The position numbers and the translations under genes are program-made. From an uncultured bacterium (lineage in GTDB: Bacteria > Margulisbacteria > Marinamargulisbacteria > SXXA01), in contig CAIPHK010000031.1 in NCBI GenBank assembly GCA_903864835.1, positions 188 to 64,187 of the forward strand: 64,000 bases of DNA, read 5' to 3'. Shown piece after piece: positions 10,073 through 13,408 of this stretch. Under the pieces are notes generated by a model. The model worked only from the letters and a program-made list of their open reading frames with translations, was not told the origin of the DNA and made no database searches. How positions within the stretch are numbered: the first letter of the stretch is position 1; each line of letters starts with the position of its first letter.

Positions 10073-10770
10073 TGTTACTGGGTGTCAATATCGATCATGT
10101 CGCAACCTTGCGTCAGCAGCGAAAAGAAGGCGATCCCGATTTAATCGCAGCGACACATGAGGTCCTTGCGGGTGGTGCGGATGGGATTACCGTCCATCTT
10201 CGTGAAGATCGACGACATATTCAGGATGACGATGTCATTCAATTGCGGCACATTGTGCCTCGGCTGAATCTTGAGATGGCGGCCACGGATGAAATGGTTC
10301 AGTTTGCGCTTGGGATACGTCCCGATTTTGTATGCCTGGTTCCCGAGAAACGCGAGGAATTAACGACGGAGGGCGGGCTCGATGTGATCCGGAATGAAGG
10401 CCGAATCGAATCCTGTGTGGATCGGTTACAGTCGGCGGGGATTTTGGTGTCATTGTTTATTGATCCCGAAATTCCTCAGGTTCAGGCGGCCCAACGGGTA
10501 GGAGCGGCTTACGTCGAACTTCACACGGGTGTATATGCAGTTGAAGTGGAGTCTAGAGTTCCCTTACGTGCACTTCAGGCAGCGGCGAGTTACGCCAAAT
10601 TGCTGGGGGTACGGGTGAATGCCGGTCATGGGCTGAAATATCACAACGTTTCGGCGATTGCCCGGATTTCAGAAATTGAAGAATTAAATATTGGACATAG
10701 CATTGTGGCACGGGCGTTAACGGTTGGTTTACGGCAAGCGGTGGTGGAAATGAAGTTATTGGTCTTGTAG
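10072..10770 (+). CDS. pdxJ: Pyridoxine 5'-phosphate synthase
   Basis: [38 protein letters not shown]. Confidence 0.97.
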
Positions 10771-11886
10771 CTGTAGAGTGTTCATAAACGCCTGAGTCTC
10801 AGTGCCAGTGGGGCGGTCTTTGGGATCGAAGGACACCATGTCTAAGATGAACTTGGTGAGCTTAAGAGGAACCTCTAACTTGTCCATTTCAGTCTTTGCC
10901 GAGATTGAATATGTATTTCGACGTAAATTATCTTGGTGGACACCCGGATCGTCATAATCGGTATGGTATTCTTTGCCAGTAACCATTTGGTACATCATTG
11001 CGCCCACGGTATAAACGTCTGAACGATCGCAGTATTTTCCGTCCCAGCCTTCAGGTGGCATATGTTTTGGATCTACAGGGGTGGTTGCTATTGAAAAGTG
11101 AATTTTTTCCCCTCGTTCGGAATGGGGGATCGGGATTGCACTATCAAAATCAACCAGGGTCAGCTGCTTTGTATCTTTAGCCCGGATGATGTTGTCGAAT
11201 GTGATATTACGATGGCAGACACCCCCTTCACTGAGCGCGGCGAGCATTTCTCCCAGACATTTGAGATCGGCTACCTTACACTGAGGGGTGGTGGGGGCTT
11301 CCATTGGGGTTGATCGAATATGCTCGAAGGCGATAAATTGAACTATTTTAGTACTGTCCAATGACTCGTAATAACCGAAGGCTTTGCTTTTGATCACGTA
11401 GGGACTGTCGATTTGCCTGAGCATTTGATGCGTATGGGTCACCGCTTTGATGCCGGCTGCAGTGGCTAATTTTTTTTCTTCAAACGTGGCGCCGGTGACG
11501 TTGACTTGTTTAATAACAACTGTTGCGGAGGCCTCCGATGGGTATTCTATTCTCTTGTCGTAAGGCCCCATTATCCCTTGGCGGACGGAAGATCCTCTTC
11601 GAATAGGTTGGGCTACGACCATCGACGTTCCTTTGCCATCGAGGAGGATGACTTCATCACTGATTTTGGTTCCTCTCGTTATTCCAGGGGGGTTAAAATT
11701 CGTTGGAACTAGATCCAGTACCGTGGGCTTCGTTATATCTTGGAATTGGGTAAGCGCTTCCTCGAATGTGGGGCGTTGCTCCACCCCAACTGCAATCCGA
11801 TTCTCTCCAGCAGATTCGGGCCCAACCGCCAGCATCGCTTCAATCAATTGCTTGAGTTGGGGCGTCATTCCCTCAACACGGTCCAA
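10756..11886 (-). CDS. Hanks-type pseudokinase domain; 3' part of a tandem kinase gene split by an in-frame TGA
   Basis: [12 protein letters not shown] (catalytic D replaced by N), VDFD, PPE, SDVYTVG, DPKDRP; in frame with 11923..12663, and its first ~45 residues complete the upstream kinase C-lobe. Confidence 0.8.
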
Positions 11887-11922
11887 TAGGGCGAATTCGG
11901 GGGTTTTGTCGCCGTATAGAGA

Positions 11923-12663
11923 TCAGAGGATCCCCCATAAGGAGGTTCCTCCTCGTGAAAATGGTATACCGGTCAGTAGTTCGTAAATGACAGTCCCCAT
12001 TGAAAAAACGTCCGATTTTTCGGTTTGGTCCAACCCCCCTGCGGCTTCCGGAGACATATTGTAGGGAGTCGCCTCACGGCTTCCAGAAACGACCCCGTTC
12101 TCATCCATTTCCCTCATTGGCATTAGATCTGCAATTTTAATTTTGTTTTTAGAATCAATTAAAATGTTGGCCGGTTTGATGTCTCCGTGGATGACCCTTG
12201 ATTCGGCCATATCTCTGCCGGCTTCCAATAATTGGGTGATTGTGGAGATCGTAGCGGCATCGATTTTATTTAAACGAACTGTGGGTGCCCAGGAGATATT
12301 ACTGGGGGCGGCCTGAGAACTGCCTTGTTTTTTTATTTGCTGAGATAAGGGCTGTCCCGCAAATTCCAATACAGTCGCAATCTTGCTTTTGCTGGGACTA
12401 TCGACGCTCGTAAATTCCCCAAAACCGAGACATTGAACAAACCGGGGGTTTCCCTTAAACCGTTCATAGTTCCTAAATTCGATTGCGGCGCTCTCAAGTG
12501 GGGGGGTGTCATTGGACTTCTTAAAAAATTTAACGGCGACATGGCCGACTCGGCCGTCGAAGTCTTCAATGACTCCGTCAACCACCTTGGCGCTGGTTCC
12601 TTTGCCGATCTGGGATGCAAGATGGATTGTGGACCGGACGAAGAGTAATTGATCTCCAGACAA
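11923..12663 (-). CDS. Hanks-type Ser/Thr kinase domain; 5' part of the tandem kinase gene, true start unresolved (frame open up to 12948)
   Basis: IGKGTSAKV, VAVK, IHGDIKPANIL, IADL, TPYNMSPE, KSDVFSMG. Confidence 0.85.
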   Translation of the reverse strand: MSGDQLLFVRSTIHLASQIGKGTSAKVVDGVIEDFDGRVGHVAVKFFKKSNDTPPLESAAIEFRNYERFKGNPRFVQCLGFGEFTSVDSPSKSKIATVLEFAGQPLSQQIKKQGSSQAAPSNISWAPTVRLNKIDAATISTITQLLEAGRDMAESRVIHGDIKPANILIDSKNKIKIADLMPMREMDENGVVSGSREATPYNMSPEAAGGLDQTEKSDVFSMGTVIYELLTGIPFSRGGTSLWGIL

Positions 12664-12826
12664 GCGACTTCCAATTGTGTAGGGACTGGTGATTGGGGGG
12701 CTTTTTATGGCTGGGGTTGCGGCGTATGCAAACGCGGCATGGCCGCTGGGACTGGGTGATGGATTAAGCGTTTGGAGGAAGTAGTCCTCTCCACCCCGTA
12801 ACTCGGATTTGTTGATGTAGTGATAG

Positions 12827-13408
12827 ATGTCGGGCAGCGGAATGTGTTGTAACGAATTGGCGCGTCGTAGGTGGGATACCTGGAACCTATCATGGAGACT
12901 ATCGGCGGATGATGATGTGCTGACTCTAGGCCTTTCTTGCTGTCCTGATCACTACGTAAGCACTAAAAATGGACGCGGACTTTTGCGCCAAACTCTTTTC
13001 ACTCAATTGGGACTCAAGACGTTGGCGACTGCGTTAACCTGGGATGCGCTGACGGGCGATGCCGTAATTCATAAGCGGTTTCCAAAATCCGCGATTGAAT
13101 CGGTCCTTAATATTTTAGGGTGTGCGGAACCCGGACGGTATTTAATTGGCGTGCATTTTAACGGTATTGTTCCCCATATATTCGGTCTCGAAAAACGGGC
13201 CGATCCGATAACGCCGATGGCGGTTGTCGATATCACCATGGGGTTTGCGAGTCCGATTTTTGTCGGGGTGGAGTCACTTAACTTTCATTTTACGGAAGTC
13301 ATCGAGCGGATTCGAGCGGATATTGATCCATCGGCGACGAAGTCACAGGTCGTCCGTGTCGATGTCTTTGAACCGGTGTTTTTTCAGGGCAATCAGTCTC
13401 CGAGTTGA
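12827..13408 (+). CDS. Hypothetical protein, possible papain-fold peptidase; 5' end uncertain, perhaps a frameshifted start at ATG 12969
   Basis: RYLIGV..PHIFGL..AVVDITMG strand-His-strand-Asp pattern; 5' part overlaps the kinase open frame on the opposite strand. Confidence 0.45.
   Translation: MSGSGMCCNELARRRWDTWNLSWRLSADDDVLTLGLSCCPDHYVSTKNGRGLLRQTLFTQLGLKTLATALTWDALTGDAVIHKRFPKSAIESVLNILGCAEPGRYLIGVHFNGIVPHIFGLEKRADPITPMAVVDITMGFASPIFVGVESLNFHFTEVIERIRADIDPSATKSQVVRVDVFEPVFFQGNQSPS

Follow-up and report, generated by a model that had tools for sequence, protein, structure and literature searches.

The stretch of DNA analysed here (hereafter referred to as the window) comprises 64,000 nucleotides (nt) of contig CAIPHK010000031.1, assigned to an uncultured bacterium of the Margulisbacteria, and it carries on its minus strand a tandem kinase gene, coding for two kinase domains, in which the reading frame is split by an in-frame TGA codon. 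The two parts are visible as the open reading frames (ORFs) 11923..12663 (246 amino acids, aa) and 10756..11886 (376 aa), which share one frame (12663-11886 = 777 = 3 x 259) and are set apart by the TGA at 11925..11923 and 12 sense codons. This arrangement was pointed out in a preliminary description of the sequence, and the frame relationship, the distance and the read-through peptide quoted there are exactly as the sequence gives them. Gene callers give products of 220 aa and 370 aa in every assembly, the called 220-aa product beginning beyond the glycine-rich loop (G-loop) of the first kinase domain; the 246-aa and 376-aa versions are without a record in an exact look-up, because the callers picked other starts.

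When the upstream ORF is considered alone, it matches the Pfam family Pkinase (PF00069) over profile positions 2-197 of 263, with a score of 84.3 bits (gathering cut-off 31.7). When the TGA is bridged, the match of the first domain reaches profile position 249 and the total score is 141 bits, divided over two domains, of which the second covers profile positions 23-256 with 57 bits. The first Pkinase domain is above the gathering score in either case, and it is complete solely across the TGA. This is in agreement with the proposals of the preliminary description that the two ORFs are parts of one tandem kinase-pseudokinase gene and that the peptide just past the stop supplies the C-lobe that kinase 1 lacks, as shown by the extension of the match from position 197 to position 249.

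The 5' remnant of the gene (11926..12948, minus strand), as delimited by the alignment with an intact ortholog described below and by the Pfam match, starts with what is left of an N-terminal region rich in Ser and Pro, which is disordered in the model (12948 to about 12643), followed by kinase domain 1 from the N-lobe through helix αF. The motifs of this domain are the G-loop (12606-12583), VAVK (12540-12526), HGDIKPAN (12189-12166) and ADLMP (12132-12118). The catalytic residues are all present, both in the window and in the intact ortholog, being the Lys of VAVK, the Asp and Asn of HGDIKPAN and the Asp of ADLM, such that kinase domain 1 of the intact form looks catalytically competent. The remnant ends at the TGA nonsense codon (11923..11925), the next base of which is a T. 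The 3' remainder (10756..11922, minus strand), delimited by the Pfam match, the motifs and a structure model of the ortholog, contains helices αG-αI of kinase 1 (to about 11674), a short linker of low model confidence and kinase domain 2 (about 11616-10759), and it is closed by a TAA codon (10758-10756). Domain 2 retains the Lys of VVIK as well as the first Asp of DFD; there is HRN (11214-11191) in place of HRD and DFD (VDFD, 11154-11140) in place of DFG. As the catalytic Asp is lost, domain 2 is a predicted pseudokinase. The motifs that the preliminary description had listed for the two domains are thus all found at the mapped coordinates.

Intact relatives and the two lesions

When 5.8 billion proteins are searched with the bridged sequence, two strong matches are obtained, referred to as P0001 (769 aa, 85% identical, query coverage 100%) and P0002 (925 aa, 33% identical, query coverage 96%). 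Both are encoded on one contig of 7.3 kb (L001), in the order gene A (minus strand), P0002 (plus), P0001 (plus), pdxJ (minus) and rfbB (minus). P0001 is the syntenic ortholog of the kinase gene of the window, since it adjoins pdxJ on L001 as the window gene does, and it is one uninterrupted ORF. In a tblastn comparison, residues 37-769 of P0001 match window positions 12948-10762 as a single segment with 84.6% identity; by the same type of search, no trace of P0002 is detected in the window. The codon of L001 that is aligned with the TGA is GGA, coding for Gly382 of P0001, and the window differs from it by one G-to-T transversion. A nonsense lesion had been listed among the possible causes of the split, which is correct as to the cause, but the change is from GGA to TGA and not, as had been suggested, from CGA or TGG to TGA.

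The intact form, as seen in P0001, is a soluble protein of about 770 residues, in which about 140 Ser/Pro-rich N-terminal residues, modelled as disordered, are followed by the kinase domain and the pseudokinase domain. In the AlphaFold2 model of P0001 (mean predicted local distance difference test score, pLDDT, 70; predicted template-modelling score 0.53), residues 1-138 have pLDDT values below 50, and two kinase folds are present, at approximately residues 139-460 and 480-769. Gly382 is located in a helix formed by residues 377-385, just past αF (351-367), and the next helices, between residues 392 and 446, have block-mean pLDDT values of 68-96. The junction is therefore modelled as kinase helices, as the preliminary description had anticipated. 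Helices αG-αI pack on the core of the kinase fold, and a product ending at the TGA would, according to this model, lack αG-αI and everything downstream of them.

An exhaustive profile search of 1.84 billion representative proteins adds only two further family-like proteins, P0261 (625 aa, with an apparently incomplete C-terminal end) and P0262 (890 aa); the remaining matches show generic kinase similarity. P0001, P0002, P0261 and P0262 are all continuous through the stop position, such that none of these relatives is encoded as two separate proteins. Just past this position all four have in common a family-specific motif, PEF.LL..V.G.T...L...M....RPTF. In the column aligned with the stop there is a Gly in P0001, an Arg in P0002 and a variable residue in P0261 and P0262, and never a conserved Cys. 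A family-alignment scan of 185,579 species representatives finds no ortholog, only generic kinases from Myxococcales, Obscuribacterales and an uncultured bacterium, and a scan of Joint Genome Institute (JGI) metagenomes gives 80 loci with generic kinases, 26-48% identical over parts of the query, and no further ortholog. The family appears to be restricted to a small number of samples or lineages that are closely related. To judge from their sequences, the four proteins form a very small, undescribed family of tandem Hanks-type kinases, so far seen solely in these metagenomes. The second domain of P0002 and of P0262 retains HCD or HRD and DFG, and that of P0001 and of the window copy is degenerate, which suggests that the pseudokinase state of domain 2 is a recent, lineage-specific change. 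P0262 is encoded at positions 234-2906 of a 2.9-kb contig (L093) from the same KRAE22-1 metagenome as L001, and both of its domains are catalytic-looking.

The TGA had been described as the single lesion of the gene, which does not hold, as is seen when L001 is aligned with the window by blastn. Two blocks are obtained: L001 1-225 corresponds to window 13170-12946 and L001 3526-7269 corresponds to window 12949-9218, the latter with about 90% identity, and the 3.3 kb in between (L001 226-3525) are absent from the window. The junction (12946..12949), inspected base by base, reads ...GTAGTGATCA|GGACAGCAAG..., in which four nucleotides, ATCA, are common to both sides. The absent 3.3 kb hold codons 1-63 of gene A, the intergenic region and the entire gene of P0002, the upstream paralog. 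They also hold, for P0001, the Shine-Dalgarno sequence, the ATG and about 36 initial codons, with the native promoter region inside; the native start on L001 has GGAGG 8 nt upstream. In the window, the kinase frame is shut by TAG TGA directly 5' of the junction (immediately upstream of 12948), and it does not contain an in-frame ATG, GTG or TTG until TTG 12663, its first canonical start. On the other side of the junction lies the chimeric remnant of gene A, the divergent neighbour (12842..13408, plus strand, 188 aa), as deduced by comparing its translation with that of gene A of L001. Its own first 63 codons are gone, and its present N-terminal ~35 codons are the antisense of the 5' region of the kinase gene. 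The N-terminus that is lost from the window contains, in L001, the peptide GRCFGFSLMW. Gene A has no match in Pfam, NCBIfam, PADLOC or the sequences of the PDB.

The kinase gene has suffered two independent lesions. A 3.3-kb deletion between the 4-nt microhomologies has taken away its ribosome-binding site and ATG with the first ~36 codons, together with the entire paralog upstream and the 5' end of the neighbour that is transcribed divergently. A G-to-T change has turned the glycine codon GGA into TGA, in the helix that follows αF of kinase 1.

A difference of one base from the ortholog is of the kind that a sequencing or assembly error could make, in which case the true genome would have a sense codon at 11923-11925. 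However, contigs L005-L008, which stem from three metagenome assemblies of the European Nucleotide Archive, made from different samples, and from a Logan assembly of a separate run, show 100% identity with the window over positions 10600-13500, TGA and deletion junction included. An identical copy of the truncated 220-aa product is recorded for 11 contigs, and the context of the TGA is not a homopolymer. Because of the four identical contigs and the 11 contigs with the truncated product, the sequencing error that the preliminary description had kept in view is effectively excluded. The lesions are found in every examined assembly of this population. The locus is a pseudogene in the sense that its frame is disrupted relative to intact orthologs by a lesion that is real and not an assembly artefact.

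Decoding of the TGA and possible use of the pieces

Upstream as well as downstream of the stop, the frame is open and conserved, as would also be seen if the TGA were recoded, be it by read-through with a near-cognate tRNA, as selenocysteine or through a reassigned genetic code, resulting in a regulated ratio of truncated and full-length protein. Such a read-through switch was among the suggestions of the preliminary description, which also noted a hairpin just 3' of the TGA. This stem exists, with 9 of 11 positions paired and a folding energy of -7.9 kcal/mol over 45 nt, but it is like that of a typical 45-nt coding window: of such windows, 29% within this gene and 52% within its neighbours have a fold that is as stable or more so, and the fold of 71 nt at the TGA has z = +1.04 when compared with shuffled sequences. 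The hairpin is no better than chance. A search of Rfam (E up to 1) over positions 10500-14500 finds nothing, and there is no tRNA gene within the window.

The residue of the ortholog at the stop position is a glycine, which is also the meaning of UGA in genetic code 25; however, this match is accounted for by the one-base change from GGA to TGA. TGA ends 13 of the 45 long ORFs of the window. In a scan for stops that have long open stretches of one frame before and after them, this TGA is the only one that interrupts a homologous gene; the other cases are unrelated neighbouring genes that share a frame by chance. The usage of TGA as a normal stop and the lack of any other TGA-interrupted homologous gene in the window rule out a reassigned code (tables 4 and 25). 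A selenoprotein gene was likewise considered and rejected, as the aligned column contains no conserved Cys or selenocysteine, with Gly or Arg in the relatives, no structure resembling a selenocysteine insertion sequence rises above chance, and the Rfam search is empty. The T that follows the TGA makes an efficient termination context in Escherichia coli. Even with full read-through, the start of the gene would still be missing. Programmed recoding is a very improbable explanation of this locus.

It is also conceivable that the gene is undergoing fission and that at least one of its pieces is still made and used. The candidates are a pseudokinase of ~370 aa starting at ATG 11868 (or TTG 11886), possibly by re-initiation, and a truncated kinase 1 starting at TTG 12663. 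The prediction of separate 220-aa and 370-aa products by gene callers in every assembly is in line with this possibility, as is the downstream part of the gene, in which there is no frameshift and the ratio of nonsynonymous to synonymous substitution rates (dN/dS) with respect to L001 is 0.28. ATG 11868 lies 55 nt past the stop and is preceded by GAGGGA. However, this GAGG ends only 2-3 nt ahead of the ATG, compared with 6-10 nt in confident genes of the window, and the stretch from GAGG to ATG is identical in the intact ortholog, where it codes for Val-Glu-Gly-Met. None of the candidate starts (12663, 12585, 11886 and 11868) has a well-spaced Shine-Dalgarno sequence, as many confident nearby genes do. 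As for the truncated kinase, the called 220-aa product starts past the glycine-rich loop, and the 246-aa version is without αG-αI. No promoter-like site above chance is found, and the native promoter region is within the deleted 3.3 kb. The low dN/dS ratio would mostly reflect the time before the lesions, and the relative-rate test described below shows no difference between the lineages. Gene fission is therefore considered unlikely. There is a slim chance that the ~370-aa stand-alone pseudokinase is still made from ATG 11868, by re-initiation or from an upstream transcript, or that a few ribosomes read through the TGA; if true, this bacterium would represent a stage at which a pseudokinase module is being released from the kinase that it was coupled to.

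Age of the damage and genomic surroundings

The dN/dS ratio of the kinase gene with respect to L001, calculated according to Nei and Gojobori, is 0.29 for the whole gene and 0.27 for the part upstream of the stop, very similar to the value for the downstream part given above, and for pdxJ and rfbB it is 0.10 and 0.13, respectively. The 3.75-kb alignment block that spans the gene contains four gaps, all of which fit whole-codon differences and preserve the frame. When P0002 is used as the outgroup in a relative-rate test, the informative amino-acid changes number 17 for the lineage of the window and 15 for that of P0001, which is balanced. The low dN/dS ratio, the in-frame insertions and deletions and the balanced rates argue for a recent inactivation: purifying selection has probably acted on the kinase frame almost throughout the period that followed the separation of the two species, and the lesions would be recent.

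The divergence from L001 climbs from 6.1% to 14.9% at about window position 11881, ~42 nt 3' of the TGA, and the synonymous rate (dS) rises from 0.15 to 0.38 at the same position. Relaxed selection downstream of the stop was considered as the cause of this jump and rejected, as dS rises too and the outgroup test is balanced. It is possible that a boundary of a recombination tract lies at this position.

Taken together, the locus is best explained, with a probability of roughly 85%, as a young pseudogene, in which one tandem kinase gene of an uncultured Margulisbacteria population has been broken twice, and from which presumably no functional protein is made. Several points weigh against this interpretation. 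There is only one close ortholog, and the polarity of the changes is derived from P0001 and from three paralogs or relatives that are distant. Except for the two lesions, the frame is intact over 730 codons with a dN/dS ratio well below 1, and continued function would look alike; since a preserved frame and a low dN/dS ratio cannot by themselves exclude function, gene fission keeps some weight. TTG 12663 is preceded, at a distance of 4 nt, by a weak GGAAG and lies 4 codons ahead of the point where the first strand of the folded domain begins, and given a transcript, a product with the entire N-lobe of kinase 1 is conceivable. ATG 11868 could in principle serve as the start of a stand-alone pseudokinase.

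A nonsense mutation and a deletion in an accessory gene are everyday genome decay, and as it stands the young pseudogene matters little in itself. For the annotation it means that the called 220-aa and 370-aa 'kinase' genes should be merged and flagged as one pseudogene and that the 188-aa ORF is to be seen as a deletion chimera. The comparison with the intact relatives exposes the tiny undescribed family of bacterial tandem kinases in uncultured Margulisbacteria, in which a transition from kinase to pseudokinase appears to be visible between paralogs. The intact ortholog P0001 and the paralog P0002 would then provide a natural before-and-after pair for the origin of a pseudokinase partner.

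The broken gene is part of what may be called a kinase islet, a stretch of 4.75 kb between pdxJ and mgtE (10771..15518) that contains the broken tandem kinase, the remnant of gene A, two minus-strand ORFs without a family and a stand-alone canonical kinase. The extent of the islet follows from the gene order of a more distant syntenic relative, L094 (RpoD 91% identical, DNA 65-77% identical), and from its blastn alignment with the window. In L094, pdxJ and mgtE are directly adjacent (3417-3536) and the whole islet is absent, by which the stretch 10771-15518 is accessory; the islet would appear to be dispensable. The same relative has, at positions 16879-18623, two adjacent genes with Pfam Mito_carr matches, the second of which is faint; this family is unusual for bacteria, and the contig comes from an NCBI assembly with contig numbering above one million. 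It is possible that these genes point to host association or to an assembly derived from a eukaryote.

The stand-alone Hanks-type kinase of the islet (14382-15557, plus strand, called start 14463) has canonical HRD and DFG motifs. Its Pfam match covers profile positions 3-198 only, because of a divergent C-lobe, and the last 39 nt of the gene are shared with the convergent gene mgtE. The two minus-strand ORFs, 14014..14304 (96 aa) and 13393..14004 (203 aa), are also in one frame, with TAG (14016-14014) and three codons between them. No homolog or family is found for either of them, the 203-aa ORF being without a match in Pfam, NCBIfam, PADLOC or the PDB sequences, and the region 13393-14304 may represent another broken gene or simply noise.

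Elsewhere the window has the contents of an ordinary bacterial chromosome, coding for FolD, RmlA/B, PdxJ, MgtE, RecO, succinyl-CoA ligase, AcrB, PutA and RecQ, as well as for a sigma-54 two-component pair. The RpoD protein encoded in the window shows 73-79% identity with proteins assigned to Candidatus Margulisiibacteriota or Marinamargulisbacteria. Three large plus-strand ORFs (17031-22598, 28395-30476 and 56362-59052, of 1855, 693 and 896 aa, respectively) have no Pfam match at E values up to 1e-5. For the tandem kinase, the best PADLOC matches are mad6 (E = 7e-47) and PD-T4-6, and the anti-phage kinase MAD6 of the MADS system was therefore considered and rejected: the NCBIfam model NF047741 gives 113.7 bits, compared with a cut-off of 460, the similarity is of the generic kinase type, and no partner genes are present, the neighbours of the broken kinase being pdxJ, ORFs without an assigned family and mgtE, with no MADS genes among them.

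Relation to known kinases and pseudogenes

When the family profile is compared with solved structures, the best matches are the kinase-domain chains of PknB of Mycobacterium tuberculosis (E = 9e-42), a Hanks-type bacterial Ser/Thr kinase, and both domains of the window gene match PF00069, as PknB does. Unlike PknB, the intact form has two kinase folds per chain, preceded by a long N-terminus for which the model predicts disorder; neither a transmembrane segment nor a sensor domain, PASTA or other, is detected in it. Domain 1 is a non-RD kinase (HGD) with DLM where DFG is usual. The equivalog cut-offs of NCBIfam are far from being reached, as for example in the case of PknB_PASTA_kin (84 bits, compared with 450). 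In a Foldseek comparison of the model of P0001 with the PDB, the top 50 matches are single-domain kinases (such as CDK2, FGFR, CaMKII and AMPK), with template-modelling scores of 0.7-0.82 normalised to the target, and among these 50 there is no tandem-kinase entry and no Janus kinase (JAK).

The preliminary description had likened the gene to JAKs and to plant tandem kinases. The likeness holds in that two kinase folds, an active-looking one and a degenerate one, occur in one polypeptide. In the plant protein WTK1/Yr15 (PMC6170490) the order is kinase and then pseudokinase, which is also the order in the window gene, whereas it is the opposite in JAKs (JH2-JH1). No specific sequence or structural relation to these proteins is found, the organism is a bacterium, the window copy is broken and the nearest solved relatives by sequence are bacterial PknB kinase domains, such that the resemblance is one of architecture only, by analogy, and not of membership.

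An atlas of bacterial Ser/Thr kinases defines pseudokinases by the loss of at least one of the VAIK-Lys, the HRD-Asp and the DFG-Asp (bioRxiv 10.1101/2025.01.12.632604; PMC12599244). Domain 2 fits this definition, as its HRD-Asp is replaced by Asn. The terms 'tandem' and 'two kinase domains' are absent from the text of both publications, and the literature on bacterial tandem kinases yields only papers on plant tandem kinases and these two surveys of bacterial pseudokinases, without tandem architectures.

With respect to its present state, the locus is most like ordinary bacterial pseudogenes that have been inactivated by a nonsense mutation and a deletion, with which it shares the disrupted ORF, the lost start and the apparently dispensable position. 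Nothing essential differs from these; the gene is only young enough that its frame is otherwise intact.

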